Assembly: GCA_052387235.1 (NCBI GenBank)
Contig: JBQTJJ010000001.1
Coordinates: forward strand, 7,581 to 71,580
DNA: 64,000 nucleotides
Direction of reading: 5' to 3'
Source of the DNA: Actinomycetota bacterium
GTDB lineage: Bacteria > Actinomycetota > Acidimicrobiia > Acidimicrobiales > GCA-2861595
Position 1 is the stretch's first letter, and the number at the start of each line of letters is the position of its first letter. Shown in pieces: positions 36,156 through 55,092 of the stretch. Position numbers and translations under genes: made by a program. A model generated the notes under the pieces. The model saw only the letters and a list, made by a program, of their open reading frames with translations. It made no database searches and was not told the DNA's origin.

Positions 36156-36782
36156 GTGGCCGATCGCATCCCCGTGTTCGTCTATGCCGCGGACCCGATC
36201 TCCCAGGCCGGGCTGGTGGCGCAGCTCCGCAGCCGGCCGGAGGTGACCGTCGTGGCCGCGGGCGACGTGGACACCGCCGTGGTGGCCATCGTCCTCTGCG
36301 ACGAGATCGACGACGAGGCCCTCAAGGCGGCCCGGGCCGTACAGCGCAACGGCTGTCCCAAGCTGGTGCTGGTGGCCACCCGCCTCGACGACGCCGGCCT
36401 CCTCCGGGCCGCGGAGACCGGCGCCAGCGGCCTCTTGCGCCGGAGCGAGGCCTCGCCCGAGCGCCTGGTGACGTGCGTCCGGTCGGCCCTGGCCGGCGAC
36501 GGGGCCGTCCCGCCCGACCTGCTGGGCCGGCTGCTCGACCAGGTGGGCCGCCTGCAGCGCCAGGTGCTGGCACCCCGCGGCCTCACCATGAGCGGCATGG
36601 CCGAGCGGGAGCTGGAGGTGCTCCGGCTCGTGGCCGACGGCCTCGACACGGCCGAGATCGCCAGCCGGCTCTCCTACTCGGAGCGCACGGTGAAGAACGT
36701 CATCCACGACATCACGTCCCGCTTCCAGCTGCGCAACCGGGCCCACGCCGTCGCCTACGCCGTGCGGGAGGGCCTCATCTGA
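36156..36782 (+). CDS. LuxR-family regulator with receiver-like N-terminal domain (atypical), no adjacent kinase
   Basis: GTG 36156 after GGGGGAAGGAGCAGG. C-terminal ERELEVLRLVADGLDTAEIASRLSYSERTVKNVI HTH. The N-terminal domain has only one Asp in the usual DD position and no clear conserved Lys. Confidence 0.8.
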   Translation: MADRIPVFVYAADPISQAGLVAQLRSRPEVTVVAAGDVDTAVVAIVLCDEIDDEALKAARAVQRNGCPKLVLVATRLDDAGLLRAAETGASGLLRRSEASPERLVTCVRSALAGDGAVPPDLLGRLLDQVGRLQRQVLAPRGLTMSGMAERELEVLRLVADGLDTAEIASRLSYSERTVKNVIHDITSRFQLRNRAHAVAYAVREGLI

Positions 36783-37696: not shown

Positions 37697-39810
37697 GCGG
37701 CCCCGGGAGCTCGCCCGTGCGGCCCTCGCCCTCGACAGCGCCGGGACGCAACGGCGGCCCGGTGCCGGCCGGGGCCGACCCGTCGCTGGCCCAGCTGCTG
37801 GCCCGGCTGGCCGCCGTGGAGGCCCGGGTGCGCGAGGAGGTGGGCCGGCGGCGGGCGCGCGACGCGGCCCCCGACGACCGCTTCCGCGGCCTCTACATCT
37901 CCGAGGCCCAGGTCGACGAGCTGCTGTCGGGGCCCCGCCCCCGGCCGGCCGGCCGGACCGCAGCGGCGACGCCGCCACCGGGGAGCCGCGACCGGGCCGG
38001 CGCCGGGCCGACCCGGCTGGAGCGCCTGGCCGGCGCCTTCGCCCTCGACGACGTGGACCTCGACCTGGTCGTCGTCGCCCTGGCGCCAGACCTCGACCCC
38101 CGCTTCGAGCGGCTGTACGGCTACCTCCACGACGACGTGACCAGGCGGCGGGCCAGCACCGGGCTGGCCCTGGAGCTGTGCGGTCTCGGGCTGGCGTCGG
38201 CCGAGCGCCGCCGCCTGGGCGAGGCCGGGGCGCTGTGCCGGGGCGGCGTCCTGGTGGTGGGCGAGCCCGAGCGACCCTTCCCCACCCGCTCCCTGCGCGT
38301 GCCCGACCGGGTCGCCCTCCACCTCCTGGGCGACCCCACGCCGGAGCCGTCGCTGGCGGGGCTCGTCATGACCACGGCCCCCCTCGCCAGCCGGGCGTCG
38401 TCCGATCTGGCCCGCGCCCTGGCCGCCGGGACCCGGCTCGCGTACCTGCGGGAGCGCCCCGGTGCGTCGGGCCACGCCACCGCCGCGGCCGCCTTCGCGG
38501 CTGCGGGGTGGCCGGCCGTCGTCCTGGACCTGCGCCGGCTGGCCCCCGGCGCCGACGCCGCGGTCATGGCCGCCACCGCGGTGAGGGAGGCGCGCCTGCT
38601 CGGCGCCGGCCTGGTGGCCGGCCCGGTCGAGGGGCTGGCCGAGCGGGACGTGGCCGCCCTGCGCACCATGGCCGACGTCACCTGGCCGGTGGTGCTGGTG
38701 GGGGGCCGGGGCTGGGACCCGGGGTGGTCGGCCGACGTGCCGCTGCTCCTGGATGCGCCGGCGCCGGCGCCGTCCCAGCGCGCCTCGCTGTGGCTGGCGG
38801 CCCTGTCCGGCGCGGGGGCGGAGGCCGTCGACGCGGCCGCGGCCACCACCCACTTCACCCTCTCGCCCGACCAGGTGTGGCGGGCGACGGTGACGGCCCG
38901 GCTGCGGGCCGAGGCCGAGGGCCGACCGCTGGGCGCCGGCGACCTGGGGCACGGCGCCCTGGCCCAGAACGGCGCCGGCCTGGAGCGGCTGGCCCGGCGC
39001 GTCGAGCCGGAGGTCGGCTGGGACGACCTGGTGCTGCCGGCGCCGGTGCTGCACCAGCTGCGGGAGCTCACCGTCCGGGCCCGCCTGGGCGACACCGTGT
39101 TCGGCGACTGGGGCCTGGGCCGTGGCCACCGGGGCCACCGCAGCCTCAGCGCCCTGTTCGCCGGGCCGTCGGGCGTCGGCAAGACGATGGCCGCCGAGGT
39201 GGTGGCCGGCGACCTGGGGCTCGACATGTACGCCATCGACCTGGCCACCGTCGTCGACAAGTACATCGGGGAGACGGAGAAGAACCTCGACCGCATCTTC
39301 ACCGAGGCGGAGCGGGTGAACGGGGTGATCTTCTTCGACGAGGCCGACGCCCTGTTCGGCAAGCGCTCCGAGGTCAAGGACGCCAGGGACCGCTACGCCA
39401 ACGTGGAGGTGGCCTACCTGCTCCAGCGGCTGGAGGCGTTCACCGGCATCGCCGTGCTCGCGACCAACCTGCGCAACAACGTGGACGAGGCCTTCGCCCG
39501 CCGCCTCGACGCGGTGGTGGACTTCCCGCTGCCCGAGGAGCCCGAGCGGCTCCGGCTCTGGGAGCACTGCCTGGGCCCGCTGGTGCCGAGGGCGCCCGAC
39601 CTGGACCTGGCCTTCATGGCCCGCTCCTTCAGCCTCTCGGGCGGCAACATCCGCAACGTGACCGTGGCCGCCGCCTTCAGCGCGGCGAGCCGCAGGGAGG
39701 AGGTCACCATGGCCGATCTGGTCCGGGCCACCCAGCGCGAGTACCGCAAGCTGGGCCGCCTGTGCGTGGAGGCCGAGTTCGGCCCCTGGCTCGAGGTGGT
39801 GGCGCCATGA
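37693..39810 (+). CDS. CIS AAA+ ATPase (Afp15/Pvc15-like)
   Basis: GTG 37693 overlaps the upstream stop. Walker A FAGPSGVGKT, Walker B VIFFDEADALF, ATNL...D.A..RR. Long N-terminal non-ATPase region, as in Afp15-type proteins. Confidence 0.88.
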   Translation: MSGPGSSPVRPSPSTAPGRNGGPVPAGADPSLAQLLARLAAVEARVREEVGRRRARDAAPDDRFRGLYISEAQVDELLSGPRPRPAGRTAAATPPPGSRDRAGAGPTRLERLAGAFALDDVDLDLVVVALAPDLDPRFERLYGYLHDDVTRRRASTGLALELCGLGLASAERRRLGEAGALCRGGVLVVGEPERPFPTRSLRVPDRVALHLLGDPTPEPSLAGLVMTTAPLASRASSDLARALAAGTRLAYLRERPGASGHATAAAAFAAAGWPAVVLDLRRLAPGADAAVMAATAVREARLLGAGLVAGPVEGLAERDVAALRTMADVTWPVVLVGGRGWDPGWSADVPLLLDAPAPAPSQRASLWLAALSGAGAEAVDAAAATTHFTLSPDQVWRATVTARLRAEAEGRPLGAGDLGHGALAQNGAGLERLARRVEPEVGWDDLVLPAPVLHQLRELTVRARLGDTVFGDWGLGRGHRGHRSLSALFAGPSGVGKTMAAEVVAGDLGLDMYAIDLATVVDKYIGETEKNLDRIFTEAERVNGVIFFDEADALFGKRSEVKDARDRYANVEVAYLLQRLEAFTGIAVLATNLRNNVDEAFARRLDAVVDFPLPEEPERLRLWEHCLGPLVPRAPDLDLAFMARSFSLSGGNIRNVTVAAAFSAASRREEVTMADLVRATQREYRKLGRLCVEAEFGPWLEVVAP

Positions 39811-40964
39811 GAGGGCGCGCCCATGTCGAGGCCGAGGAACGGGTCCCGGTCGCCAGGCCGGCGCCCGCGCCGGCCGGCCCCGCCGTCGCGACCGAGCCGG
39901 GCCTGGCCGGCGGCCTCCTCGGCCTCCAGGCCACCGCCGGCAACGCGGCGGTGGGGAGTCTGGTGGAGCGGCGCGGGAGCGGCCCGTGCCCCTGCGGCGG
40001 CAGCGGTGGCGACTGTGCCTGCGAGGCCGGGAGGGGCGACGAGCAGGGGGAGGATCGGGCAGGCGAGGCCCTCGACCCCGGCGCCCGCGCCTTCCTGGAG
40101 GCCCGCTTCGGGCGGGACCTGGGCGACGTGCGGGTCCACACCGGTGCCGGGGCGGCCGCCTCGGCCGAGTCGGCCGGCGCCGAGGCGTACACCACCGGCA
40201 AGGACATCGTGTTCGCCCCGGGCGCCTACCGGCCCGACTCGCCCGAGGGCCGCCACCTGCTGGCCCACGAGGTGGCCCACACCCTCCAGCCCGAGCGCGG
40301 GCCGGCCCCGTCCGGGCCCGTCTCCCGCCCCGGCGACCCGGCCGAGGTGGCCGCGGCCCGGGCCGCCGATGCCGTCGCCGCCGGCGCCGCCCCGGCCCGG
40401 CTCGGCAGCCGGCCGGCCGGGGTGGTGCACCGCCAGGCCGAGGACGAGGAGGCCGCTCCCCAGCCGGTGCCGGACATGAGCGGGACCGGGGAGGTGACCG
40501 AGGTGCAGGCCATGGCCAACATCTCCCTGCCCGGACGGACCGATGCCAGCTTCTCCAGCTCGTTCACGACCCAGGGCGCCACCCGCAGGCGCGGCGAGGG
40601 CGGCTGCGACACCGTCGCCGGGAACATGGTGAACACCTTCACCGTGTCGACCACGGTGACGCTGCCGCCGGTCCCGGACGGGCTCACCGAGTGCCAGGCC
40701 GCCAACGCCCAGCGCTTCATCGACACGATCCTCGCCCCGCACGAGCAGGAGCACGTGGCCCACTTCAACACCTACAACGGGACGTCCACCGTGCCGTTCA
40801 GCCTGACGGTCTGCGCCGGCGACGACCTCCAGGCCATGATCCAGGCCGAGCACGACACGGCCCAGTCCACCCGGCAGGCCGCGGCCCAGGCCCTCAGCGA
40901 CTCCATCGACCCGTTCAACGTCGACGTCGACATCGACGCGGGCTGCGAGGCACCGGCGGAGTGA
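39807..40964 (+). CDS. DUF4157 protein (intact HEVAH) with Cys cluster and unknown C-terminal domain carrying a second HExxH; candidate CIS cargo
   Basis: ATG 39807 overlaps the ATPase stop. LQATAGNAAV ... FLEARFGRDLGDVRVHTG ... AYTTGKDIVFAPG ... LLAHEVAHTLQ matches DUF4157. CPCGGSGGDCAC lies upstream. HEQEH at nt 40740-40754. Confidence 0.8.
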   Translation: MRGRAHVEAEERVPVARPAPAPAGPAVATEPGLAGGLLGLQATAGNAAVGSLVERRGSGPCPCGGSGGDCACEAGRGDEQGEDRAGEALDPGARAFLEARFGRDLGDVRVHTGAGAAASAESAGAEAYTTGKDIVFAPGAYRPDSPEGRHLLAHEVAHTLQPERGPAPSGPVSRPGDPAEVAAARAADAVAAGAAPARLGSRPAGVVHRQAEDEEAAPQPVPDMSGTGEVTEVQAMANISLPGRTDASFSSSFTTQGATRRRGEGGCDTVAGNMVNTFTVSTTVTLPPVPDGLTECQAANAQRFIDTILAPHEQEHVAHFNTYNGTSTVPFSLTVCAGDDLQAMIQAEHDTAQSTRQAAAQALSDSIDPFNVDVDIDAGCEAPAE

Positions 40965-41013: not shown

Positions 41014-42381
41014 ATGGCCGGAGCCGGACGAGCGAGGAGGCCGGGGGGTGAGGAGGCCCGCCACCCGGAGCGCGCCGTGGCCCCGGCCCGGCCGGCGCCG
41101 GCGCCCGCCGACGACGCGGCACCGGAGCACTCCCCCCTGCTCGACCTGCAGCGCCAGGTCGGCAACGCCGGTGTGCAGGAGCTGGTCGACCTGGCCGGGT
41201 CGGAGCCGGGGCGGCCGCTCGACCCCGACGTGCGGGCCTCGATGGAGGCGTCGTTCGGCCGGTCGTTCGCCGGCGTCGAGGTCCATGAGGGACCGGCCGT
41301 CGACCGGGCCGCCGAGGGGCTCGGCGCCGCCGCCTTCGCGGCCGGGGAGGACGTCTTCCTGCGATCCGACGTCGACCCCGGGACGCCGCCGGGCCGGGAG
41401 GTGCTGGGTGAGGAGCTGGCCCACGTGGCCCAGGGGGTGGGCGCGAACCGCGCCGCCCACCTGCTGCCGCCAGAGGGCGGGGTCGAGCAGGAGGCCCACC
41501 GGGCCGCCCACGAGGCGGCCGAAGGGCGGCCCGCGGCGGTGAGCTTCGCCCCGGCCGCCGCCACCGGCGTCGGCCGCTTCCTCGACCCCATCAGCCTCGG
41601 TGTCATCGGGGGCATCGGCTACGGGGTCAAGAAGCTCTACGAGGAGCTCACCGAGGAGGAGGTGGAGGCGACCAAGCCCGACCCCGACCAGCCCACCCAG
41701 GCGACCGTCGATGCGATAAAGGGCGGTGTCCCGCCCCAGCTCGACGCCGCCGTGGCCAAGCTGGGCGGTGACCCGACCCCGGCCAACAGCAAGGCCGCCG
41801 CCGCCTCCCTCTCCTCGGTGAAGGACTTCCTGATCGGCCAGCTGCCCCCCACCAACCAGGGGCCGGTGATGTCCGTGCTGCTCACCGTGACAGGGGCCAT
41901 CAACACCCTGGAGGCGGCGGCCGACCCGACCGGTGTGCTCAAGGAGCTGCAGGGCAGCGTGGCCGCCAAGAAGGCCGAGCTGGACGGGCTCGTGGCCAGC
42001 GCCAAGGAGCCGGCCGTGGGACCGGACGGCAAGGAGCTGCCGCCGGACGCGCTCACGCCCGACCAGGCGTCGATCCTGAGCAGCGGGCCGGTGGTCTGGA
42101 TGGGCGAGGCGGCCACCATGCTGGCCGAGCCGGAGCCCGATCCCGATCTGATCGCCGGCAAGCTCGACGGGGCGGCCGGCGCCATCCGCAGCGTGAACGC
42201 GCCGCCGGCCGTCCTGCCGCAGCTGACCAAGATCGCCTTGAACTGCGGGTTGTACGCGGAGACGGCCAAGGCGACCAAGCTCACCGTGGCCGAGTCCGTC
42301 CCCCAGGCCATGGCGCAGCTCGAGGCGGCCAAGTCGATGATCGCCGAGCTGGGCGTGCCGCCCGAGATCCCGCCGGAGTGA
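41014..42381 (+). CDS. DUF4157 protein (degenerate metal motif EELAH) with helical C-terminal domain; candidate CIS cargo
   Basis: LQRQVGNAGVQELV ... MEASFGRSFAGVEVHEG ... AFAAGEDVFL ... LGEELAHVAQG. The C-terminal about 270 aa is Ala/Leu/Lys/Pro-rich and I do not recognise it. Confidence 0.75.
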   Translation: MAGAGRARRPGGEEARHPERAVAPARPAPAPADDAAPEHSPLLDLQRQVGNAGVQELVDLAGSEPGRPLDPDVRASMEASFGRSFAGVEVHEGPAVDRAAEGLGAAAFAAGEDVFLRSDVDPGTPPGREVLGEELAHVAQGVGANRAAHLLPPEGGVEQEAHRAAHEAAEGRPAAVSFAPAAATGVGRFLDPISLGVIGGIGYGVKKLYEELTEEEVEATKPDPDQPTQATVDAIKGGVPPQLDAAVAKLGGDPTPANSKAAAASLSSVKDFLIGQLPPTNQGPVMSVLLTVTGAINTLEAAADPTGVLKELQGSVAAKKAELDGLVASAKEPAVGPDGKELPPDALTPDQASILSSGPVVWMGEAATMLAEPEPDPDLIAGKLDGAAGAIRSVNAPPAVLPQLTKIALNCGLYAETAKATKLTVAESVPQAMAQLEAAKSMIAELGVPPEIPPE

Positions 42382-44093: not shown

Positions 44094-44537
44094 ATGCCCA
44101 TCGGCGAACACCCGATCGCGGGTTACAGCTACCACGTCGAGATCAGCGGCGTCACCATGGCCCAGTTCAAGTCGGCCGAGGGCCTCGGCATCAAGATCGG
44201 CGTCATCGAGCACCGGGAGAACAAGCTGACCGGCCTGCCCGTGCTGAAGAAGCTGCCCGGCCACGTCCAGTACAGCGACATCACCCTCAAGCGGGGCAAG
44301 GTCAACGACAAGGTCTTCTGGGACTGGATCAAGCAGGTGGCCGACGGCGACATCGACGGGGCCCGCAAGGAGGGCTCGGTGGTGCTGTTCGACTACGCCC
44401 ACGGCGAGGTGGGGCGCTTCGACTTCGAGGGCGCCTGGCCCAGCGACGTGAACGTGGGCGCCCTGGACGCGGCGGGCGACGAGGTCCTGCTCGAGAGCCT
44501 CACCATCACCATCGAGAAGCTCAACGTCCCGGCCTAG
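44094..44537 (+). CDS. Tail tube protein (T4 gp19-like, Afp1-like)
   Basis: Y.V.I.G...A.F....GL...I.V.E.RE ... G.V.Y.DITLKRG...D..FWDW pattern. RBS AAAGGAG. Confidence 0.9.
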   Translation: MPIGEHPIAGYSYHVEISGVTMAQFKSAEGLGIKIGVIEHRENKLTGLPVLKKLPGHVQYSDITLKRGKVNDKVFWDWIKQVADGDIDGARKEGSVVLFDYAHGEVGRFDFEGAWPSDVNVGALDAAGDEVLLESLTITIEKLNVPA

Positions 44538-44541
44538 GACG

Positions 44542-44949
44542 ATGACCCCGCCCGTCGCCGAGGCCGACCAGCAGGCCGGCCTGCACACCGAGTTCAGCTT
44601 CGAGCTGCCCGTGGGGTACGTGGACGGCTCCGGTGCCGTGCACAGGAGCGGCGTCATGCGCATGGCCACGGCGCGCGACGAGATCATGCCGCTGCGCGAC
44701 CCCCGCGTCCTCGACAACGAGGCCTACCTCTCGGTGATCCTGCTGGCGCGCGTCGTCACCCGGCTGGGCACGGTGACGTCGGTGAACCCCGGGGTCATCG
44801 AGGGCCTGTTCGCCGCCGACCTGGCCTTCCTCCAGGACCTCTACCGGCGGGTCAACCAGGAGGGCCACACCCGCGCCGCCGTCAGCTGCCCGTCCTGCCA
44901 GCACGAGTTCGCGGTCGACGTGGCCGGTGGTCGCCCGGGGGAATCGTGA
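44542..44949 (+). CDS. Conserved CIS protein at the tail-assembly-chaperone position, with C-terminal CxxC
   Basis: Sits between tube and tape-measure-like genes. FELPVGYVDGSG.VHRSGVMRMATARDE ... CPSCQHEF. Function is inferred from position only. Confidence 0.6.
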   Translation: MTPPVAEADQQAGLHTEFSFELPVGYVDGSGAVHRSGVMRMATARDEIMPLRDPRVLDNEAYLSVILLARVVTRLGTVTSVNPGVIEGLFAADLAFLQDLYRRVNQEGHTRAAVSCPSCQHEFAVDVAGGRPGES

Positions 44950-45110
44950 CGTACGCGCCCGACCGTCTGTTCGAGGAGGTCGCGTACGTGGCGTACCACT
45001 TCCACTGGCCGCTCGCCGAGATCATGGACCTGGAGCACCCGCTGCGGCGTCGCTTCGTGGAGGAGATCGGCGCCATCAACCGGCGCCTGTCCGAGCACCA
45101 GGGGGCCTGA
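44946..45110 (+). CDS. Small conserved CIS-associated protein (54 aa; not in the supplied ORF track)
   Basis: GTG 44946 overlaps the upstream stop (GTGA). Translation: VTYAPDRLFEEVAYVAYHFHWPLAEIMDLEHPLRRRFVEEIGAINRRLSEHQGA. It resembles the short protein usually encoded here in actinobacterial CIS loci (I believe DUF6760; to be verified). Confidence 0.6.
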   Translation: MTYAPDRLFEEVAYVAYHFHWPLAEIMDLEHPLRRRFVEEIGAINRRLSEHQGA

Positions 45111-45117
45111 CGAGGCC

Positions 45118-47616
45118 ATGCGCCGGCCCTTCCGGCGGGAGCGCACCGAGCCCGCACCGGCGCCGGCGCCGGCCGCCGCCCCGCCGCCCGCGCCCCCGGC
45201 CTCACCGGACCGGGGCGCCCGCCACGGCCCGTGGGACGAGCTGCCCCGCCTGCGGGCCACGGCCGAGCAGCTGGAGACGACCGCGGCGACAGCGGCGTTC
45301 CTTTCCGAGCTGATCACCCGCCAGCCGGCGCCGGTGGCCCTGCAGCCCCTCAGCCACGACGTCTCGCTCAGCGCGCCGGCCGGCATCGTGCTCGGCATCG
45401 CCACCACCGTGGAGCGGCGGGGGCCGGACGCGGAGCTGCCCCTCGCCCCTCCCCCACCGCCCGCCGGTGCCCCGGCGGGCCGGTCCACACCGGTCCCGGC
45501 GGCCAGGCGGCCGGCGAGCGACGGACCGGCGGTGCGGGCCAGCGGCGACCGCCGACGGGCCCCGGACCAGGGCCGAATCCGGCCCCTCCCCACCGTGGCG
45601 GCCCCGACCCGGGCCGGGCCGGCGAGGGCTCCCGCTCCGCCTCCTGACACCGCCATCGGCTCGGCCCCGGCCGGCGAGGCGGGCGGCGAGGGCACGGGGG
45701 CGGCGACGCTGGGCCGGGCCGGGCGCGCCGCGCCGGTGCCGGCCCGCGCCCCCGGCGACGACCCCGCCGCCCCGCCGGCCGGGCCCGAGCCCACTGCCAC
45801 CGCGCCCGACCTGGTGCTGCCCCCCGTGACCGGCACGACTCGGCCCCCGCCCGGCCACGACCGGACCGCCCCCGCGGGCGCGGCCGCCGCCTCGCCGACC
45901 GGGCTCGACCCCGCCTCGCCGGCCGGGCCCGACCCTGCCCCGCCGGCCGAGCCGGTCCCGGGGCCGGATCCTGCCCCGCCGGCCGAGCCGGGCCCGCGGC
46001 CGGCACCAGCGCTCCGCGAGCCGGCCCCCGTCTCGGTGGACCGGCCCCGCCCGCCGGCCGTCCCGGCGCCGGCCAAGCCCGACCGGCCGCCGCAGCTGCG
46101 GGCTCCCACCCTGGGGCGCCGAGCCGAGGCCCGGCCCCGCATCGGGCCCCCGATGGCGTCGCCGGCCGGCGGCGCCCAGCGGGCCCCCAAGAAGGTGGGC
46201 GGCACGGCCACCGGAGGCAGCTCGCCCGCCCCGGCCACCGGGCCGGTGGCCAAATCGACCGGCGGCGGCGGGCCCGGCGGCGGGGAACCGATGCTGCCGC
46301 CGTCGACCCTCCCCGTGCTCAACCCCGGTGGCGACCTCACGGGCGGGGGTGGATCCGGTGCCGGCCCGGGCGGCGAGACGACCGTGTCCGGCGGCGGGAG
46401 CTTCGGGGGCTCCCTCACCGTGGGCGGCGAGGTCACGGCCGGCGGCGGCCTGACGGCCGGGGGCGGCCTGTCGGCGGGCGGCGAGGGTGTGGTCGGCGGA
46501 GGGGCCACCGTGGGAGGCGGCGTGCTGGCCGGGGGCGACGTCACGGCCGGCGGAGCCGGCACCTTCGGGGGGGCGGCCACGGTGGGCGGCGACCTCTCGG
46601 TGGGCGGGGCCGCATCAGTGGGTGGGGCGGCCGCCGTGGGCGGGGAGATCACGGCCGGCGGGGCCGCCACCGTGGGTGGCTCGGCCACGGTGGGGGCCAA
46701 CCTGTCGGTCGGGTCCACCGTCAGCGCCGGCGCCGGCATGTCGGCGCCCACGCTGGCCGTGGGCAGCCTGATCGCCGGCTCGGTGACGGCCGGGTCGGTG
46801 GAGGCGGCCACCATCAGCGGGGGGGGTGGTGGGGGCGCCGGCGGTGGGGCGGCCCGGGCGCCCGACGCCACCGCGCCCCTGGTGAGCCGGCGCCCGCCCC
46901 TCACCGAGCGGGCCCACCGGCCGGAGGACCTGCCCGACGACGTGCGCCGGGACGTGGAAGCGGCGGCCGGCGTCCCCCTGGCCGGCGTGATGGTGCACCG
47001 GGGCGCGGGCGTCGGCATCGAGGCGGGCCGGCGGGAGGCACGGGCCTTCACCGCCGGCGGCGAGGTGTACCTGCCCAGCGAGCACGGCCCCCTCGACCAG
47101 GAGCCGGCCCGGTCACTGCTGGCCCACGAGCTGGTCCACGTCGGCCAGCAGCGCCGCCTCGGCCGGGCCCTCCCCCACGAGGCCACCACGGAGGGCCGCC
47201 AGCTGGAGGCCGGCGCGGCCGACGTGGAGCACCGGGTCTCCACCCTCCCCACCCGGGCCCACCACCCGCCCGGCGACCGCCCGGCCGCGGCCGCCGTCCG
47301 GGCCGGCGTGGCCAGCGAGGCCGGCGACGGCACGGTCCTGTTCTCCCCCCCGCCCGGCGAGGGGCCGGCCGCGACCGGCGCCGCCTCCGTCCCCGTGGCG
47401 CGCCCGGGACCGCAGCGGGCCGCCGGCGACGCCTCCGACACCGGCGCCAGCGCCCCCGCCGCCACCGGCGAGACCACCGGCCCGGCGCCGGCCGGCGCCG
47501 GCGACGAGGACGTCGAGGAGGTCGTCGACAAGCTCTACCGCCCCATCCTCGACCGCCTCCGCCGCGACCTGCTGATCGAGCGGGAGCGGGCCGGGCTCCT
47601 GCTGGACCGGAGGTAG
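45118..47616 (+). CDS. Tape-measure-position protein: Pro/Ala-rich region + Gly-rich repeats + embedded DUF4157 + conserved C-terminal helix
   Basis: Located between tube/chaperone and tube-initiator genes. DUF4157 block DVRRDVEAAAGVPLAGVMVHRG ... FTAGGEVYLP ... LLAHELVHVGQQ at about 46920-47155. C-terminus DKLYRPILDRLRRDLLIERERAGLLLDRR. Confidence 0.75.
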   Translation: MRRPFRRERTEPAPAPAPAAAPPPAPPASPDRGARHGPWDELPRLRATAEQLETTAATAAFLSELITRQPAPVALQPLSHDVSLSAPAGIVLGIATTVERRGPDAELPLAPPPPPAGAPAGRSTPVPAARRPASDGPAVRASGDRRRAPDQGRIRPLPTVAAPTRAGPARAPAPPPDTAIGSAPAGEAGGEGTGAATLGRAGRAAPVPARAPGDDPAAPPAGPEPTATAPDLVLPPVTGTTRPPPGHDRTAPAGAAAASPTGLDPASPAGPDPAPPAEPVPGPDPAPPAEPGPRPAPALREPAPVSVDRPRPPAVPAPAKPDRPPQLRAPTLGRRAEARPRIGPPMASPAGGAQRAPKKVGGTATGGSSPAPATGPVAKSTGGGGPGGGEPMLPPSTLPVLNPGGDLTGGGGSGAGPGGETTVSGGGSFGGSLTVGGEVTAGGGLTAGGGLSAGGEGVVGGGATVGGGVLAGGDVTAGGAGTFGGAATVGGDLSVGGAASVGGAAAVGGEITAGGAATVGGSATVGANLSVGSTVSAGAGMSAPTLAVGSLIAGSVTAGSVEAATISGGGGGGAGGGAARAPDATAPLVSRRPPLTERAHRPEDLPDDVRRDVEAAAGVPLAGVMVHRGAGVGIEAGRREARAFTAGGEVYLPSEHGPLDQEPARSLLAHELVHVGQQRRLGRALPHEATTEGRQLEAGAADVEHRVSTLPTRAHHPPGDRPAAAAVRAGVASEAGDGTVLFSPPPGEGPAATGAASVPVARPGPQRAAGDASDTGASAPAATGETTGPAPAGAGDEDVEEVVDKLYRPILDRLRRDLLIERERAGLLLDRR
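46381..46850 (+). repeat. In-frame Gly-rich short-period repeats (about 20 units of V/T-G-G-x-x-T/S)
   Basis: SLTVGGEVTAGGGLTAGGGLSAGGEGVVGGGATVGGGVLAGGDVTAGGAGTFGGAATVGGDLSVGGAASVGGAAAVGGEITAGGAATVGGSATVGANLSVGSTVSAG... Confidence 0.85.
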
Positions 47617-47620
47617 GGAG

Positions 47621-48055
47621 GTGGCGGCGTCGAAGGACCCGGGCCTGGCCATCCGCTACGAGGTGAAGGTCGACGGCGTGGACCTGGGCGCCTTCACCGA
47701 GTGCGACGGGCTGGCCGGCGAGTACGAGGTCCTCGAGTACCCGGAGGGCGGCAACAACGGCTTCGTCCACCGCCTCCCGGGCCGCCTCAAGCACACCAAC
47801 GTCACGCTGAAGCGGCCCATCGACGCCGAGTCCGGGAAGCTGGCCGCCTGGTTCAGCAGCCTCAAGGACGCGGTGAGCCGCAAGACGGCCTCGATCACCG
47901 TCTACGACGGCAACAAGAAGAAGATCGCGGGCTGGAGCCTGGTGGGGGTCTGGCCGGCCAGGTACAGCGGCCCGAAGCTGTCGTCCACCGACGAGGGCGT
48001 GGCCATCGAGACCCTGGAGCTGGTCCACGACGGCTTCACCCACGAGGGCGGCTGA
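47621..48055 (+). CDS. Second gp19-like tube-family protein (Afp5-like tube initiator)
   Basis: RYEVKVDGVDLGAFTECDGL..EYEV.EY.EGG ... LKHTNVTLKRP is paralogous to 44094-44537. GTG after GGGAGG. Confidence 0.88.
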   Translation: MAASKDPGLAIRYEVKVDGVDLGAFTECDGLAGEYEVLEYPEGGNNGFVHRLPGRLKHTNVTLKRPIDAESGKLAAWFSSLKDAVSRKTASITVYDGNKKKIAGWSLVGVWPARYSGPKLSSTDEGVAIETLELVHDGFTHEGG

Positions 48056-48058
48056 CCG

Positions 48059-48721
48059 GTGCCCGCCCTCGACAAGGCCTACCTGGCGGTGCAGGGATCG
48101 GGCGACCGGCTCGAGTTCGCCTTCAACCCCACCGAGGTCGACCTGGCCAAGTCCTCGCAGTGGAAGGACTCCAAGAACAAGGGCGCCAAGAAGGCGCCAC
48201 CCAAGGAGTTCATCGGCACCAACGCCCGCACGCTGGCCATGGAGCTGCTGTTCGACGGGTGGAACGACGGGAGCGGCGACGTGTCGGCCGCGGTGGAGAA
48301 GCTGTTCACCTGGACCTGCCCCACCGAGGAGTCGCTCAGCAACAACAAGCCGCAGCCGCCCGTGGTGGTCCTGCACTGGGGCGCGACCTCCTACTTCGAG
48401 GTCTACGTCAAGCAGGTCCAGGCCAAGTACACGCTGTTCGACCAGCAGGGCCACCCGGTGCGGGCCACCGTCAAGGTGACCCTGGAGGAGCTGCCCCAGA
48501 ACCCGGCCGCCCAGAACCCGTCCTCGGGCGGCGTACCCGGCCGGCGCACGTACCAGATGACGGCCGGCGACACCCTGCAGTCGGTGGCCTACCGCGAGTA
48601 CCGCCGGCCCCAGTACTGGCGGGCCCTGGCCGAGGTCAACGGCATCGACGACCCGATCCGGGTGCGGCCCGGGACCCAGCTGCTCGTCCCGCCCGCCACC
48701 GAAGCGGCCCGGCTGTCGTAG
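48059..48721 (+). CDS. LysM-domain baseplate/tube-initiator protein (Afp7-like)
   Basis: The N-terminal tube-like half (LEFAFNPTEVDLAKSSQW) and the C-terminal LysM (YQMTAGDTLQSVAYREY..PQYWRALAEVNGIDDP.RVRPGTQLLVP). Confidence 0.85.
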   Translation: MPALDKAYLAVQGSGDRLEFAFNPTEVDLAKSSQWKDSKNKGAKKAPPKEFIGTNARTLAMELLFDGWNDGSGDVSAAVEKLFTWTCPTEESLSNNKPQPPVVVLHWGATSYFEVYVKQVQAKYTLFDQQGHPVRATVKVTLEELPQNPAAQNPSSGGVPGRRTYQMTAGDTLQSVAYREYRRPQYWRALAEVNGIDDPIRVRPGTQLLVPPATEAARLS

Positions 48722-48731: not shown

Positions 48732-50465
48732 GTGCCCGACACCCAGCAGTTCGGAGCCAAGCCGGTGATCGAGATCGACGGCAGCCCCCTGCCATCGAGC
48801 GTGGAGCCGGCCCTGGAGGAGGTGGTGGTGGACGACCACCTCCACCTGCCCGACATGTTCCTGCTGCGGCTGCGCGACGACGGCAAGGACGTGTTCCGGC
48901 AGCTGGCGGTGCGCATCGGCAGCAGGGTCACCATCTCGGCCACCCCCGTCGGCGACGGGCGCCAGGACCCGCTCATCGTGGGCGAGGTCACCGCCCTGGA
49001 GGCCGAGTACGACAAGACCGGGACCCACGCACTGGTACGCGGCTACGACCTGTCCCACCGGCTGTGCCGGGGCCGCAGGACCCAGACCTTCAACGACGTC
49101 ACCGACTCCGACCTGGCCGCCCAGATCGCCGAGGGGGCCGGCCTCGACCTGGGCCACGTCGACGCCACCTCCACCACCTACGAGCACGTGTCCCAGGTGA
49201 ACGTCAACGACTGGGAGTTCCTCAAGGCCCGGGCCCGGGAGATCGGCTACGAGGTTGCGGTGGTGCTGGGCAAGTTCGAGTGGCGGCGCCCCGCCGAGTC
49301 GTCGGCCGGCCCGGGCGAGTCGGGCGTGGAGCCGGGAGAGCCCACCCAGCTGGTGCTGGGCTCCAACCTCGAGTGGTTCCGGCCCCGGGTGACGGCCGGC
49401 GAGCAGGTGAAGGAGGCCCAGGTGCGGGGGTGGGACCCCACCACCAAGCAGAAGGTGGTGGCCACTGCCGCGGCCGCCACGACCAGCGCGTCGGTGGGCC
49501 TGGGGCCGGCCGAGCTGGCCGGCACCTTCGGCAACCCCACCTACGTGTGCGTCGACCTGCCCCTGGCCACCCAGGCCGAGGCCGACGCCGCCGCCGCCGC
49601 CCTCATCGAGCAGATCGGCAGCGTCCACTGCGAGGCCGACGGCGTCGCCCAGGGCAACCCGAAGCTCCGGGCCGGCACGGCCGTGAGCGTGTCGCTGGCG
49701 GGCTGGCCCTACGACGGCCGCTACACCATCACGTCCTCCCGCCACTGCTACAGCCCCGGCGGGTACCGGTCGCACTTCCAGGTGAGCGGGCGCAACGAGC
49801 GCTCCCTGCTGGGCCTGGCCTCCATGGGCGCCACCAAGGGCAACGGCAGCGCGGGCGGGCCGCCCATGTACGGCGTGGTGATCGCCCAGGTCACCGACCT
49901 CGACGACCCCGAGGAGCTGGGCCGGGTCAAGCTGGCCATGCCCTGGCTGTCGGACACGTACGAGTCCTGGTGGGCCCGCGTGGTGCAGCTCGGGGCCGGC
50001 GACCAGCGGGGGGCGGTCTGGCTCCCGGAGGTGGACGACGAGGTGCTCGTGGCCTTCGAGCACGGCGACGTGCGCCGGCCCTACGTCATCGGCAGCCTGT
50101 GGAACGGCGTGGACAGGCCGAACCTGGGCTCGCGCCTGTTCGACCACGGCGCCGTGAAGCGGCGTGGCTTCGTGTCCAAGAAGGGCCACCGCCTGGTGTT
50201 CTTCGACGACGACGGCAAGTCGGGAGTGGCCACCATCACGGCTGACGACGGACTGCGCATCTCGCTCAACCAGACCGAGACGACGATCAAGGTGACCAGC
50301 TCGGGCAAGGTCGAGATCCAGGGCACGGGCGAGGTCTCCATCACGTCCAGCAGCAACGTCACGGTGGAGGCCACCGGCAAGCTCGACCTCAAGGGGTCGG
50401 CCGGCGTCAGCATCGACGGCGGCCCCCAGGTGGCCATCACCGGCGGGGTGGTGAAGCTCAATTGA
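48732..50465 (+). CDS. Spike/baseplate hub protein (gpD + gp5-OB + beta-helix; VgrG/Afp8-like)
   Basis: gpD-like N-terminus. VVIAQVTDLDDPEELGRVKL..PWL ... WARVVQ ... GAVWLPEVDDEVLVAFEHGD.RRPYVIGSLWN. Ends in beta-helical repeats. Confidence 0.9.
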   Translation: MPDTQQFGAKPVIEIDGSPLPSSVEPALEEVVVDDHLHLPDMFLLRLRDDGKDVFRQLAVRIGSRVTISATPVGDGRQDPLIVGEVTALEAEYDKTGTHALVRGYDLSHRLCRGRRTQTFNDVTDSDLAAQIAEGAGLDLGHVDATSTTYEHVSQVNVNDWEFLKARAREIGYEVAVVLGKFEWRRPAESSAGPGESGVEPGEPTQLVLGSNLEWFRPRVTAGEQVKEAQVRGWDPTTKQKVVATAAAATTSASVGLGPAELAGTFGNPTYVCVDLPLATQAEADAAAAALIEQIGSVHCEADGVAQGNPKLRAGTAVSVSLAGWPYDGRYTITSSRHCYSPGGYRSHFQVSGRNERSLLGLASMGATKGNGSAGGPPMYGVVIAQVTDLDDPEELGRVKLAMPWLSDTYESWWARVVQLGAGDQRGAVWLPEVDDEVLVAFEHGDVRRPYVIGSLWNGVDRPNLGSRLFDHGAVKRRGFVSKKGHRLVFFDDDGKSGVATITADDGLRISLNQTETTIKVTSSGKVEIQGTGEVSITSSSNVTVEATGKLDLKGSAGVSIDGGPQVAITGGVVKLN

Positions 50466-50538: not shown

Positions 50539-50931
50539 TTGAGTAGTGAGTTCATTGGCGCGGGGTGGGCCTATCCCGTTCGCACGGACGCGACCGGGGG
50601 CATCGCCCTGGTGTCGGGGGACCGGGAACTGGCCGAGAGCATCCGGCTCATCCTGGGCACGGCCTACGGCGACCGGCCCATGCGGCCCGAGTTCGGCTGC
50701 GCCATCCACGACTTCGTGTTCTCCCCCGCCGACACCGGGATGGCCGGCCTCATCGCCTACGAGGTCCAGGCCTCGCTGGCCCGCTGGGAGCCCCGCATCG
50801 TGGTGCAGGGGGTGGACGTGAGCTTCGACCCGGACCGGCCCGTCGTCTACATCGACCTGCGCTACTCCACCAGCGACGCCAACGACCCCCGCAACCTCGT
50901 CTTCCCCTTCTACTACCTGCCGGAGGAGTGA
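50539..50931 (+). CDS. Baseplate wedge protein gp25/GPW-like (Afp9-like)
   Basis: GAGWAYPV ... ESIRLILGTAYGDRPMRPEFGC.IHDFVF is the GPW_gp25 signature. TTG start after GGGGAGAG. Confidence 0.88.
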   Translation: MSSEFIGAGWAYPVRTDATGGIALVSGDRELAESIRLILGTAYGDRPMRPEFGCAIHDFVFSPADTGMAGLIAYEVQASLARWEPRIVVQGVDVSFDPDRPVVYIDLRYSTSDANDPRNLVFPFYYLPEE

Positions 50932-50932: not shown

Positions 50933-52873
50933 ATGGCGCTCCCCGCCCCCAACCTCGACGACCGCCGCTTCCAGGACCTCGTCGACGACTGCAAGCGGCT
51001 GGTGCAGCAGCGGTGCCCCGAGTGGACCGACCACAACGTCCACGACCCCGGGGTCACGCTTCTCGAGACCTTCGCCTGGCTGGCCGACCAGCTCCTCTAC
51101 CGGCTCAACCGGGTGCCGGACAAGAACTACGTGAAGTTCCTGGAGCTGGTGGGCGTGCGCCTGTTCCCGCCCAACGCGGCCCGGGCCGGCGTCACCTTCT
51201 GGCTGTCGGCGCCGCGGCCCGACACCGTCCGCATCCCGTCGGGCACGCGGGTGGCCACGCCCCGCGCCGGCTCCGAGGAGCTGGTGGCCTTCACGACCCT
51301 GGACGACGTCGACGTCGTCCCCTGCCGGGTCGCCCACGTCCTGTCCACCGTGGCCGAGGGGGCCTACCGCCACCACGACGACGCCCTCGGGCTGGAGCAG
51401 GAGTTCGCCTGCTTCGACCAGGTCCCCAAACCCGGCGACAGCCTGCTGGTCGGCCTGGACGACGCCGTCCCGTCCTGCGCCGTGGTGGTGCGCTTCGACG
51501 CGCGCATCGAAGGCATAGGCGTCGACCCCGACCGGCCGCCGCTGGCGTGGGAGGCGTGGGACGGCGAGGGCTGGGCCGCCTGCCAGCTGGACACCGACAC
51601 CACCGGCGGCATCAACCGGGCCGGCGACGTCGTGCTCCACGTGCCGCCCAGCCACACCACGGCCATCGTCGACCGGCTCCGGGCCGGGTGGCTGCGGGCC
51701 CGGGTGCTGGAGGCAGAGGACGACCAGCCCGCCTACAGCGCCTCGCCGTCGGTGCAGCGCCTGTCGGCGTTCACCATCGGAGCCACCACGCCGGCTGTCA
51801 ACGCCGAGGTGGTGGAGGACGAGGTGCTCGGGTTCTCCGACGGCACGCCCGGGCAGTGCTTCCGGGTGAGCCGGCTGCCCATCGTCCCGGTGGGCGACCC
51901 CGTGGTGGTCGAGGTGGCGGGCGACGACTGGGAGCCGTGGGAGGAGGTCGAGGACTGGGCGTCGAGCGGGCCCGACGACGCCCGCTTCGTGGTCGACCGT
52001 GTCAGCGGTGAGGTGCGCTTCGGCCCGGCCGTGCGCCAGCCCGACGGCACCGTGACCTCCTACGGCCGGGTCCCGCCCAAGGGCGCGGCCGTGCGCATCC
52101 GCTCCTACCGCACCGGCGGAGGCCAGCGGGGCAACGTGGCCCGGCGCAGCCTCACCGTGCTCAAGTCCTCGATCCCGTTCGTGGCGCGCGTCGAGAACCG
52201 GTCCGCGGCCTCGGGCGGCCGGGACGGCGAGACGGTGGGGAACGCCAAGGAGCGGGGGCCCATCACCCTTCGGTCGAGGGGCCGGGCCGTCACGGCCGAG
52301 GACTTCGAGTCCATCGCCGGCCAGGCCGCGCTGGAGGTTGCCCGGACCCGCTGCACGCCGGTCACCGACGGCGACGGCGGGAGCGGCGTGCGCGTGCTGA
52401 TCGTCCCCCACGCCACCGACGACCGGGGCCGCCTCTCGTTCGGTCAGATGGTGCCGGCCGACGAGACCTACCAGAAGGTGGCCGCCGCCCTGGACGAGCG
52501 CCGCATCGTGGGCACGCGGGTGGTGGTGGAGCCGCCCGAGTACATGGGCGTCACCGTGGTGGCCCGCCTGCGGCCCCACCCGTCGGCCAACCAGGCCCGC
52601 CTCCGCGAGGCCGCCCTGGAGGCGCTGTTCGGCTACTTCCACCCGCTGCGGGGCGGACCCGACGGGGATGGTTGGCCGTTCGGCCGGCCCGTCCACGTGG
52701 GCGAGGTCTACGCCGTGCTCCAGGGCCTGCCCGGGCTCGGCATCATCGAGGACGCCCGCCTGTTCACCGCCAACCCGGCCACCATCGAGCGGGGCCGCGA
52801 CGCCGTGCCGCGCATCGACCTGGAGCCCAACCAGCTCGTCTTCTCCGTGGACCACCAGGTGGTCCTCCGGTGA
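50933..52873 (+). CDS. Baseplate J-like protein (gp6-like, Afp11-like)
   Basis: LPAPNLDDRRFQDLVDD....Q.RCPEWTDHNVHDPGVTLLE.FAW..D.L.YRLN..P is the typical N-terminus of the putative baseplate assembly protein family. 646 aa. Confidence 0.88.
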   Translation: MALPAPNLDDRRFQDLVDDCKRLVQQRCPEWTDHNVHDPGVTLLETFAWLADQLLYRLNRVPDKNYVKFLELVGVRLFPPNAARAGVTFWLSAPRPDTVRIPSGTRVATPRAGSEELVAFTTLDDVDVVPCRVAHVLSTVAEGAYRHHDDALGLEQEFACFDQVPKPGDSLLVGLDDAVPSCAVVVRFDARIEGIGVDPDRPPLAWEAWDGEGWAACQLDTDTTGGINRAGDVVLHVPPSHTTAIVDRLRAGWLRARVLEAEDDQPAYSASPSVQRLSAFTIGATTPAVNAEVVEDEVLGFSDGTPGQCFRVSRLPIVPVGDPVVVEVAGDDWEPWEEVEDWASSGPDDARFVVDRVSGEVRFGPAVRQPDGTVTSYGRVPPKGAAVRIRSYRTGGGQRGNVARRSLTVLKSSIPFVARVENRSAASGGRDGETVGNAKERGPITLRSRGRAVTAEDFESIAGQAALEVARTRCTPVTDGDGGSGVRVLIVPHATDDRGRLSFGQMVPADETYQKVAAALDERRIVGTRVVVEPPEYMGVTVVARLRPHPSANQARLREAALEALFGYFHPLRGGPDGDGWPFGRPVHVGEVYAVLQGLPGLGIIEDARLFTANPATIERGRDAVPRIDLEPNQLVFSVDHQVVLR

Positions 52874-53487: not shown

Positions 53488-55092
53488 GTGATCATCTGCG
53501 AGGAGTGCGGCAACCAGAACGACTCCACCGACACCTTCTGCGGGTCGTGCGGCGCCTTCCTGGAATGGCAGGGCCAGCGAGTCGAGGAGCCGGCCCCGGA
53601 ACCGGAGCCCGAGGTGGAGGAGACGGCCGAGGAAGCGGCCCGGCCGGGGATCGTGCAGCGGGTCAAGACGGCCATCGGCATCGAGGACCAGCCCGGCGGG
53701 GGCGGTGGGCCCGCCGCAGCCGGTGGGGCCGGGCCCGGCACCGACGAGGCGGTCGAAGCCGAAGAGGCCCGCCGGCTGGCCGCGGCCGAGCGGGCCGGCG
53801 CGGAGGAGGCCGCCGAGCGGGCCCGGCGGGAGGCGGCAGAGGCCCGGGCCGAGGCGGAGCGGGCCGAGCGACTGGCCCGGGAGCAGGCCGAGGCCGCGGC
53901 CCGGGCCCAGCGCGAGGCGGAGGCCCGGGCCCAGCGCGAGCACGCGGCCGGGGCCCAGGCCGAGACCGAGGCGGCCCGCCGGGAGGCGGAGGCGGAGGCG
54001 GCCCGCCGGGAGGCCGAGGCGGAGGCGGAGGCGGCCCGCCGGCGGGCCGAGGAGGTGGCCGGCTCCACCGCCGCGGCCGAGGCGGCTGCGGAGCGGGCCA
54101 GGGCCGAGGAGGCCAGGCGGGAGGAGGCGGCCCGCCGGGCCGCGGCCATGGTGGCCCAGCCCAGACAGGCGCCCACTCCCCCGTCTCCACCGGCGCCGGC
54201 GGCGGTACGGCCGACCGAGCAGCGCCAGCGGCCCGCCCCCCGCCAGCCGGCCGCCCCCGCCCCGGTGGTCAAGCCGGGCGACCTCATCTGCGGGCAGTGC
54301 GGCGAGGGCAACGACCCGGCCCGGAACTTCTGCCGGCGCTGCGGCCACACCCTGGCCACCGCCCTGGTGGCCAGGGTGCCGTGGTACCGCCGCGTGTTCT
54401 CGCGCCGGAAGAAGGCGGTCCCTGCCGGCGCCCGTCCCGGCCGGGCCGGAGGCGCGGTCGCCGCAACGACCGGCGGGCGGGGCCGCCGCGGTGCCGTCCG
54501 CGACGCCAAGATGGCCGGGCGCAAGGCCAAGTCGGTCTACAACAAGTTTCGCAGGGTGGCCGCCCTGCTGGTGATCCTCGGCGTGGGCCTGGCCTTCCTC
54601 GGTCCCTTCCGGGAGCCGGCCAACCGCGCCTACCAGTCGGTCCGGCGGGTCATCAAGCCCGAGTTCGAACCGGTGCGCCCCGTCGCCGCCGTCGCCTCCA
54701 GCTCAGCCCCGGGCCGTGATCCCACCGCCGTCATCGACGGCATCAAGAACACCTTCTGGGCCGAGGGCGCCCCCGGTCCCGGCGACAGGCAGACCCTCAC
54801 CGTCACCTTCTCGGAGCCCACCGACCTCGACAAGTTCGGGATCATCCCGGGGGCGTCGGAGAACCCGGCCCAGTTCGTGGCCCAGCCCCGGCCCCGGACC
54901 CTGCATCTCGTGTTCGACGGCACCACTCCGAGTGCCAAGGACGTCGCGGTCAAGGACTCGGCCAAATTCCAGTCCTTCGACCTGAAGGCCAAGGGCGTCA
55001 CCAGCGTGCTGGTGGAGATCGTGTCGGTCCACGCCAGCACGGGCGGCGAGGACTGCGCCATCACGGAGCTGGAGTTCTTCCGGAAGAAGTGA
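53488..55092 (+). CDS. Zinc-ribbon x2 / Glu-Ala-Arg coiled coil / TM / discoidin-like (glycan-binding type) protein
   Basis: ICEECGNQNDSTDTFCGSCGAFL and ICGQCGEGNDPARNFCRRCGHTL ribbons. TM helix VAALLVILGVGLAFLGPF. C-terminal DGIKNTFWAEG ... ITELEFF resembles F5/8-type-C/NADase-type glycan-binding domains. GTG 53488 is 20 nt after the gpI-like gene. Confidence 0.75.
   Translation: MIICEECGNQNDSTDTFCGSCGAFLEWQGQRVEEPAPEPEPEVEETAEEAARPGIVQRVKTAIGIEDQPGGGGGPAAAGGAGPGTDEAVEAEEARRLAAAERAGAEEAAERARREAAEARAEAERAERLAREQAEAAARAQREAEARAQREHAAGAQAETEAARREAEAEAARREAEAEAEAARRRAEEVAGSTAAAEAAAERARAEEARREEAARRAAAMVAQPRQAPTPPSPPAPAAVRPTEQRQRPAPRQPAAPAPVVKPGDLICGQCGEGNDPARNFCRRCGHTLATALVARVPWYRRVFSRRKKAVPAGARPGRAGGAVAATTGGRGRRGAVRDAKMAGRKAKSVYNKFRRVAALLVILGVGLAFLGPFREPANRAYQSVRRVIKPEFEPVRPVAAVASSSAPGRDPTAVIDGIKNTFWAEGAPGPGDRQTLTVTFSEPTDLDKFGIIPGASENPAQFVAQPRPRTLHLVFDGTTPSAKDVAVKDSAKFQSFDLKAKGVTSVLVEIVSVHASTGGEDCAITELEFFRKK
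53741..54150 (+). repeat. In-frame Glu/Ala/Arg-rich imperfect tandem repeats (coiled-coil coding)
   Basis: ARAQREAEARAQRE and EAARREAEAEAARREAEAEAEAARRRAE units are visible in both the DNA and the protein. Confidence 0.8.

Follow-up and report, generated by a model that had tools for sequence, protein, structure and literature searches.

The 64,000-nucleotide stretch of DNA analysed here (the window; Acidimicrobiales, contig JBQTJJ010000001.1) has a GC content of 70-80% and carries on its + strand, from ~35.8 to 55 kb, a complete gene cluster of a contractile injection system (CIS). Between the tube and tube-initiator genes of this cluster lies an open reading frame (ORF) of 832 codons at 45118-47616 (+), whose product, here called the slot protein, is a genuine, unusual variant within a widespread family of uncharacterised proteins. 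This family is a credible candidate for the ruler that has been reported missing from lineage-II injection systems.

Architecture of the slot protein

The slot ORF is coding. GC content at third codon positions (GC3) is 0.88-1.00 in 16 of its 17 blocks of 150 nt and 0.80 in the last, and its ATG start is backed by an N-terminal motif, MRxPFRR or MRWPLRR, common to relatives. An 896-aa antisense ORF at 44841-47531 was rejected as the usual high-GC shadow. The exact protein sequence is also present on an 11.9-kb Logan contig (SRR34758881). The protein is built as follows.

45118-45417, + strand: N-terminal conserved part, with a basic MRRPFRR start, a predicted helix at aa 38-67 and the motif FLxxLxxRQPAxxALQPLSHDVSLSAPAGIV
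45418-46326, + strand: Pro/Ala/Gly-rich region without predicted structure, aa 101-403
46381-46812, + strand: 24 Gly hexapeptides, aa 422-565
46930-47157, + strand: DUF4157/eCIS_core domain with HELVH, aa 605-680 (AlphaFold2 domain aa 600-712)
47506-47616, + strand: C-terminal amphipathic helix and stop codon, aa 797-832, signature LYxxIxxRLRxxLLxERERAG

The original prediction for this gene, made from the sequence alone, described about 100 ordinary residues followed by about 300 rich in Pro, Ala and Gly, and the composition agrees, with aa 1-100 mixed and aa 101-420 consisting of 25% Pro, 20% Ala and 16% Gly. The N-terminal part is common to locus L003 (E 8e-13) and to P0005 (63% identity), and the region that follows is equally Pro/Ala-rich in relatives and variable in length. 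AlphaFold2 was run with a 47-sequence alignment that contains essentially no homologues over the repeat block. It predicts a helix at aa 38-67 (pLDDT 66-71), a stretch mostly below pLDDT 50 from aa 70 to 417, the DUF4157 domain at aa 600-712 (pLDDT 96-98) and a C-terminal helix at aa 797-830 (pLDDT 90-96). These two helices are the only ones outside DUF4157, aa 421-548 being predicted as beta structure, and the second of them, already picked out in the original prediction, coincides with the most conserved signature of the family. A transmembrane segment was ruled out (maximum 19-residue hydropathy 1.36), and neither the Pfam scan nor AlphaFold2 places an effector domain 3' of DUF4157, where there is a linker and the helix only.

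The DUF4157 core noted from the sequence is a clear match to PF13699 (DUF4157, now eCIS_core) at aa 605-680, with E 6.5e-15 and 55.5 bits against a cutoff of 22, and its HELVH is intact, H670, E671 and H674 being invariant over the 47 aligned sequences. A DUF4157 match above the gathering score, an HExxH motif and a CIS locus with cap, AAA+ ATPase, sheath, tube, VgrG, gp25, baseplate J and P2-I genes are thus all present. Sequence and fold searches of the PDB with this domain gave nothing significant, the best fold match being YbeY at E 4.

N-terminal to this domain, aa 422-565 form 24 hexapeptides in a single register without an insertion or deletion, with the consensus T/S, V/A, G, G, x, x; 17-19 of the 24 are canonical [T/S][V/A/F]GGxx units. 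In-phase GG pairs number 18, whereas 20,000 shuffles average 6.4 and none of them goes beyond 13, and the self-identity of the block peaks at lags of 6, 12, 18, 24 and 36. The underlying DNA has nested periods of 18, 54 and 108 nt, and since its copies are only 65-76% identical the array is old, without recent expansion. A strand every six residues over aa 421-548 (pLDDT 77-87) makes the block a predicted beta-solenoid with 18 residues per turn, in line with the beta-helix or beta-solenoid first suspected; the ~20 repeats originally counted at nt 46381-46850 are refined to 24 units ending at 46812. The closest sequence matches of the block are bactofilin and hexapeptide-repeat proteins, and a library search also returned giant proteins with Bactofilin, Hexapep/LbH and Peptidase_S74 domains. 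Pfam shows no hexapeptide or bactofilin match in the slot protein itself, its PDB sequence matches, to LpxA, are not significant (E 0.07-0.3), and neither are the beta-helix matches found with Foldseek against the PDB, of which the best is a bactofilin (E 0.43, root mean square deviation above 10 Å).

No Gly-hexapeptide array was found among ~190 other motif-bearing sequences, a pool of library proteins and open frames from fetched loci, in which no sequence has an in-phase count above 5, compared with 19 here. The block therefore appears to be a lineage-specific insertion, and folded as a beta-helix it would add only ~4 nm. The nearest relative by tube initiator (88% identity) is L001, a short contig of an Acidimicrobiales metagenome-assembled genome, on which the slot protein is represented by its final 59 residues alone (L001 1-180), short of the repeat block.

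Gene order and the chaperone-DUF6760 pair

We read the system as a lineage-II CIS similar to the Streptomyces CIS-Sc type (subtype IId according to its authors, PMC12237407), which has a similar gene order. The cluster comprises the following genes.

35856-36782, + strand: LuxR regulator
36947-37696, + strand: Pvc16_N cap
~37693-39810, + strand: AAA+ ATPase
39807-40964, + strand: DUF4157 protein 1, 385 aa, with an ATGA overlap with the ATPase stop
41014-42381, + strand: DUF4157 protein 2, 455 aa
42507-44045, + strand: sheath
44094-44537, + strand: tube
44542-44949, + strand: tail-assembly-chaperone homologue, 135 aa, with a conserved CxxC, directly 3' of the tube gene
44946-45110, + strand: DUF6760 small ORF, 54 aa, PF20546 at E 3.2e-13
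45118-47616, + strand: slot protein, 832 aa, largest ORF of the cluster
47621-48055, + strand: tube initiator (Cis1b/Cis5-like, second gp19-like tube protein), PF06841 at E 1.5e-33, 4 nt past the slot gene
48059-48721, + strand: CIS_tube and LysM hub
48732-50465, + strand: VgrG
50539-50931, + strand: gp25
50933-52873, + strand: baseplate J
ending at 53468, + strand: Tail_P2_I
~53488-55092, + strand: zinc-ribbon/F5-F8 type C protein, also with a NADase_transloc-like domain
55061-57985, - strand: SARP-type (BTAD) regulator with an AAA/STAND domain, convergent to the cluster

In tailed phages the G/GT chaperone pair lies immediately 5' of the tape-measure gene, as Xu, Hendrix and Duda are said to have reported in 2004. 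The 135-aa protein encoded directly behind the tube gene matches phrog_508, 'tail assembly chaperone', at E 8.5e-5, as do all 11 of the 11 orthologues (best E 1.6e-8), and its mean column identity across loci is 58%. The 168 nt between 44949 and 45118 are not an intergenic spacer, a reading that we rejected because the stretch encodes DUF6760 (GC3 0.95), a domain of which we found no mention in the literature searched. Relative to the chaperone gene, DUF6760 is read in the -1 frame at all 14 loci compared, which range from 50% to 75% GC (the window, L003, L005, L006, L008, L009, L013, L014, L016, L018, L030, L073, L086 and L087), and in the window it overlaps the chaperone stop (GTGA). Two to three codons before that stop there is a conserved NNG GGG G(A/G) run, usually as the heptamer C CCG GGG or G GGG GGA; in the window it is C CCG GGG at ~44934. 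A start codon for DUF6760 is lacking in L014 and L016, L086 offers a CTG, the only ATGs of L013 and L018 are internal, and conserved residues (PGGI) reach upstream of its nominal start. From the G-run, the constant -1 frame, the lacking starts and the conservation of PGGI we infer a programmed -1 frameshift, and on this sequence evidence the two genes are probably a G/GT-like pair.

The slot gene thus has the position of a phage tape-measure gene, behind a chaperone gene with a probable -1 frameshift partner and before the hub and baseplate genes. The original prediction had already placed it there, and the chaperone homologue and its probable partner directly upstream back that placement further. 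A clearly alpha-helical tape-measure gene elsewhere in the locus, which the original prediction named as a finding that would speak against it, did not emerge from family scans of the window ORFs.

Several neighbouring genes call for comment. The tube initiator scores 88 bits against NCBIfam CIS5_fam, below the curated cutoff of 260. DUF4157 protein 1 has a second H-E-x-x-H (HEQEH) in its C-terminal part, while protein 2 carries the domain N-terminally, followed by ~300 residues matching no family; both resemble putative effectors encoded upstream of the sheath in Streptomyces clusters. An ORF of 1109 aa called mechanically at 37635-40964 is misleading, as over its first ~720 codons, where GC3 is 0.3-0.7, it shadows the AAA+ gene out of frame. 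The interval from VgrG to gp25 showed no PAAR gene in the window, although relatives have one, and the same zinc-ribbon gene follows Tail_P2_I at loci L003 and L005.

The slot-protein family and its Streptomyces members

An exhaustive HMMER search against 1.84 billion cluster representatives returned 1417 matches with E below 1e-3, 364 of them below 1e-10, and 120 of the best 150 terminate in the signature (D/E)ELAxxLYxRIRxRLRxELLVDRERAGxLxDxR. Among members, 63 reach 430 aa or more; their median length is 625 aa and their Pro content 11-19%. Conservation in the family alignment is concentrated in the DUF4157 core and in the terminal helix, in which R-E-R and G are invariant, with a variable linker between the two; the N-terminus is conserved as well, with an MRWPLRR-like start and the motif FL..L..RQPA..AL.PL.HDV.L.AP.GIV. 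The C-terminal motif also occurs in L001, L002, L086, L087 and L090-L092. On contigs found via the family (L003-L006, L008, L009, L013, L014, L018, L030, L073, L086, L087 and L090-L092) the order of sheath, tube, a 120-160-aa protein, a 52-aa DUF6760, the family member, tube initiator, LysM hub and VgrG is constant. The productive searches were the profile search and the exhaustive HMMER search of representatives. A word-indexed protein search, dominated by low-complexity words, gave six matches for the C-terminal module and none for the N-terminal 140 aa, a contig search seeded with the tube initiator returned two loci, and 80 metagenome loci picked by the HExxH pattern held mostly generic DUF4157 genes, ~12 being useful after phmmer annotation.

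Automatic annotation often truncates or misses slot genes. Metagenome gene callers cut family members down to their last 285, 374 and 405 aa where frames are open for 629 and 729 codons from the DUF6760 stop, and one family gene is split by a probable assembly frameshift. We accordingly rejected a short subfamily of 230-400 aa for L003, L004 and L005, whose members are gene-caller truncations of ORFs of 595-727 aa. The slot proteins of L014, L018 and L073 are genuinely short, and each is accompanied by a second motif-bearing protein. In L014 and L073, which have lower GC, the slot is filled by a 230-aa DUF4157 protein ending in the motif, and 3' of the tube initiator lies a separate low-complexity protein of 663 or 537 aa with the same terminal motif. 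The relevant frames are listed here.

L014, 1433-2137 and 2636-4627: motif proteins flanking the tube initiator
L073, 4064-4750 and 5266-6879: motif proteins flanking the tube initiator
L087, 11786-15937: slot ORF missing or shortened in annotation
L091, 10766-14500: slot ORF missing or shortened in annotation
L003, 6978-8858: slot ORF missing or shortened in annotation
L005, 7035-9218: slot ORF missing or shortened in annotation

That two different proteins flanking the tube initiator both end in the motif suggests that the C-terminal helix is a shared docking signal. A Kitasatospora plasmid has yet another layout, a slot protein of 1243 aa with DUF4157 ~400 residues in, ~700 residues more and then the C-terminal motif. 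As the window protein unites DUF4157 with the long chain while elsewhere they are encoded apart, the helix is the defining element; judged from these sequences, it is the motif and not DUF4157 that defines the slot. The original suggestion of a cargo fused to a minimal tape-measure C-terminus therefore comes close: DUF4157, disordered part and helix are separable modules, fused here and split in other loci.

The same modularity extends to Streptomyces, where four plasmid clusters have slot ORFs of 1009, 1020, ~1235 and 1381 aa that share with the window protein their position, an M(A/G)W..RLR start, richness in P/A/G/S/T and the terminal motif. They differ in having neither DUF4157, with its HExxH, nor the Gly-hexapeptide array. 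Two of them are annotated 'hypothetical protein' (WP_327341076.1 and WP_112443019.1), only the last 255 aa of the ~1235-aa ORF of Streptomyces sp. NBC_01426 are annotated, and the S. clavuligerus slot is a 1384-codon open frame with no matching coding sequence in the (incomplete) PLSDB gene table.

A link to S. coelicolor comes from the 'sco4248-49 promoter region' printed by Vladimirov et al. 2023 in their Supplementary Fig. 7. Its reverse complement, the cis1b strand, encodes DFQLDELVHRIIGRVTRLVRTEL..MDRERIGRARD, and the printed region is 79% identical to the 3' end of the NBC_01426 slot ORF together with the start of cis1b (L091 14327-14839); single-base gaps in the alignment are taken as text-extraction losses because they are also scattered through cis1b itself. 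Since this strand encodes the motif, S. coelicolor has the family C-terminus immediately 5' of cis1b. The annotated SCO4249, drawn in the divergent orientation, has one unique peptide in proteomics and no assigned role, and it may have been annotated on the wrong strand, the real gene being overlooked.

A candidate ruler and its rivals

CIS-Sc particles are all 268 nm long, yet a tape-measure gene is reported absent from that system (Casu et al., PMC12237407; the absence also in PMC10066040), from the S. lividans particle (Nagakubo et al., PMC10286715) and from lineage II in general (Chen et al., PMC6899500). In all, four papers report no such gene, one of them together with a single uniform length. 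The role considered here for the slot protein is that presumed for Afp14, Pvc14 and Alg14 (Cis14) of lineage-I and AlgoCIS systems, in which a lumen protein initiates assembly at the baseplate through its C-terminus and fixes the length of the particle by its own (Rybakova 2015; preprint 10.64898/2026.05.27.728243). In the latter study the tape-measure C-terminus binds the baseplate, and the AlgoCIS particle lengthens with its ruler by 0.216-0.229 nm for each residue. Afp14, named by NCBI 'contractile injection system tape measure protein', differs in having 535 aa, a largely alpha-helical structure, an unrelated C-terminus and no chaperone gene before it. Homology to it was rejected, as the slot protein shares no motif or C-terminus with Afp14 from pADAP and has no NCBIfam match; having no family match and an unrelated C-terminus, it stands outside the Cis14/Afp14 family. 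The Afp14 slot of the original prediction accordingly holds as the phage tape-measure position, after tube and chaperone and before the hub, and fails as the place of afp14 in the Afp operon, which is after afp13. The order of tube, chaperone with -1 extension, long protein and hub, and a conserved C-terminus, are shared with phage tape measures and their G/GT chaperones (lambda G/GT/H, P2 E/E'/T), from which the window chain differs in being Pro/Ala-rich and unstructured, in carrying a DUF4157 zinc-motif domain and in matching no tape-measure hidden Markov model (HMM); tblastn with the C-terminal module against phage genomes likewise found no match. It is by gene position only that the slot protein is a tape measure in the phage sense.

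Among characterised proteins the closest, compared by description, is Tme (BN159_7576, S. davawensis), which also occupies a slot just upstream of the tube-initiator and baseplate genes, is encoded by the largest ORF of its cluster and combines a DUF4157 domain with ~70% disorder; it co-purifies with the PAAR spike tip, VgrG and the tube initiator (PMC11126660). Tme differs in having 2247 aa, DUF4157 near the N-terminus, a C-terminal EndA-type nuclease, coiled coils and predicted transmembrane helices, and in its remote resemblance to phage tape measures, whereas in the window protein DUF4157 lies near the C-terminus, a transmembrane segment and an effector domain are absent, and the chain terminates with the conserved helix. 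Tme-like effectors are defined by relative ORF length, N-terminal DUF4157 and synteny (PMC11126660); the slot protein agrees in synteny and in being the largest ORF, and lacks the N-terminal DUF4157, the transmembrane helices and the C-terminal effector. Other DUF4157 proteins act close to the tube. Sle2 of S. lividans binds the tube initiator SlpT2 (PMC13277306), and AlgoCIS Cgo1 and Cgo2 sit in the tube lumen (PMC8894135). All three have the DUF4157 core after a disordered region, as the slot protein does, but they come with C-terminal effector domains or with separate effector partners, their genes lie outside the interval from tube to hub, and they were not seen to carry the helix motif.

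The reading that we favour, on balance neither more nor less probable than its opposite, is that the slot protein resides in the tube lumen at the tape-measure position, with its C-terminal helix on the baseplate, as a scaffold or ruler that is ejected on firing. In this mechanism the amphipathic helix would dock, probably as an oligomer, to the complex of tube initiator, hub and spike at the start of assembly, and the chaperone with its DUF6760 frameshift extension would keep the Pro/Ala chain extended and recruit tube subunits around it. The chain would then lie in the lumen with its basic N-terminus towards the cap, serving as assembly scaffold and probably as length ruler, the N-terminus ending tube growth at the cap, and contraction would expel the chain together with the DUF4157 zinc-motif domain. 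The Gly-hexapeptide solenoid would be a lineage-specific insertion in a variable spacer and may stay unfolded until ejection. With that coefficient, 832 aa would correspond to ~180-190 nm and the ~1235 aa of NBC_01426, an orthologue with a C-terminus almost identical to that of S. coelicolor, to 266-283 nm, close to the 268 nm of CIS-Sc; this agreement is suggestive only, as the coefficient was obtained with helical rulers and of the S. coelicolor ORF only the C-terminal end was read.

Several observations weigh against this reading. Known tape-measure rulers are long alpha-helical proteins, whereas the chain here is predicted to be unstructured or beta, and Pfam, PHROGs and NCBIfam scans match it to no tape-measure family (NCBIfam none at E<=0.01), the Streptomyces and L014 orthologues having no tape-measure HMM match either. 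In some loci the slot protein has only ~230 aa. The chaperone link comes from one PHROG family, and tblastn with the chaperone homologue against phage genomes found nothing. The DUF4157 proteins characterised so far are cargo, and in AlgoCIS loading DUF4157 is dispensable and the disordered N-terminal region is needed (preprint 10.64898/2026.05.27.728243). Published cryo-electron microscopy models of CIS-Sc assign no such protein (PMC12237407), and mass spectrometry of CIS-Sc gave one peptide, for an ORF apparently annotated on the other strand.

The main rival, unlikely in our judgement though with real weight behind it, is that the slot protein is purely cargo, a third DUF4157 effector or loading adaptor that is packed via its disordered N-terminal part and the AAA+ ATPase and injected, with no role in length. 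Its layout of disordered region and DUF4157 is that of Cgo1 and Cgo2, in which the disordered region is the loading signal (PMC8894135), DUF4157 proteins are secreted CIS substrates (PMC11566945), two more are encoded upstream in the same locus, and the invariant HExxH residues suggest an enzymatic role. This explains the DUF4157 domain, but not why a protein with nothing beyond a linker and a helix after that domain is fixed behind a chaperone/frameshift pair when cargo genes are usually found at operon ends (PMC8213781), nor why Streptomyces orthologues without DUF4157 keep the position, the length and the C-terminal motif; both other DUF4157 proteins of the locus lack that motif.

The remaining rivals give the repeat block a function of its own. 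In the improbable case that an ejected beta-solenoid and DUF4157 form a joint effector module, for example a self-processing metallopeptidase or a rigid needle or adhesin that binds a component of the envelope, the remaining chain would be only a tether. The solenoid does lie immediately N-terminal to DUF4157 and matches giant Bactofilin/Hexapep proteins with a Peptidase_S74 tail-fibre chaperone domain, but the beta-helix fold matches fall short of significance, Pfam detects no hexapeptide or bactofilin domain in the protein, and the block occurs in one lineage only. The idea of the original prediction that the block is itself a ruler, its copy number tuning tail length, is very hard to sustain. 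A clean tandem array with 18-, 54- and 108-nt periods could expand or contract, and an unfolded 18-residue unit at 0.2156-0.229 nm per residue would span ~4 nm, roughly one tube ring (268 nm over ~60 layers, PMC12237407). Against this, every other sampled family member lacks the block, the divergence of its DNA copies shows no recent expansion, the folded block would contribute ~4 nm in total, and neither the tube-initiator contig search nor the N-terminal protein search recovered a close orthologue that could show variation in copy number. Orthologues without the block, named beforehand as telling against a repeat ruler if their tails were no different in length, are the rule, while tail lengths are unreadable from sequence.

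Taken beyond the window, the scaffold or ruler reading implies, somewhat more tentatively and with the balance tilted slightly against it, that lineage-II systems including CIS-Sc/SLP do have a ruler: an unstructured Pro/Ala-rich chain of 540 to ~1400 aa with a hub-docking helix and a chaperone/DUF6760 pair, of which the window protein would be a DUF4157 fusion with a beta-solenoid insert. Such a ruler would have been overlooked because its ORF is of low complexity, truncated, unannotated or called on the wrong strand.

For the family as a whole, the conserved slot protein, the frameshifted chaperone pair and the gaps in annotation weigh more than the repeat block that first drew attention to this gene. 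They give lineage-II injection systems a concrete ruler candidate. If the candidate is correct, particles would be longer or shorter in step with the unstructured chain, the hub would contain the C-terminal helix, and a chaperone-DUF6760 fusion protein would exist. The slot protein would then be an example of a tail ruler made of a non-helical, Pro-rich chain, and would offer a simple handle on particle length and cargo capacity in engineered injection systems.

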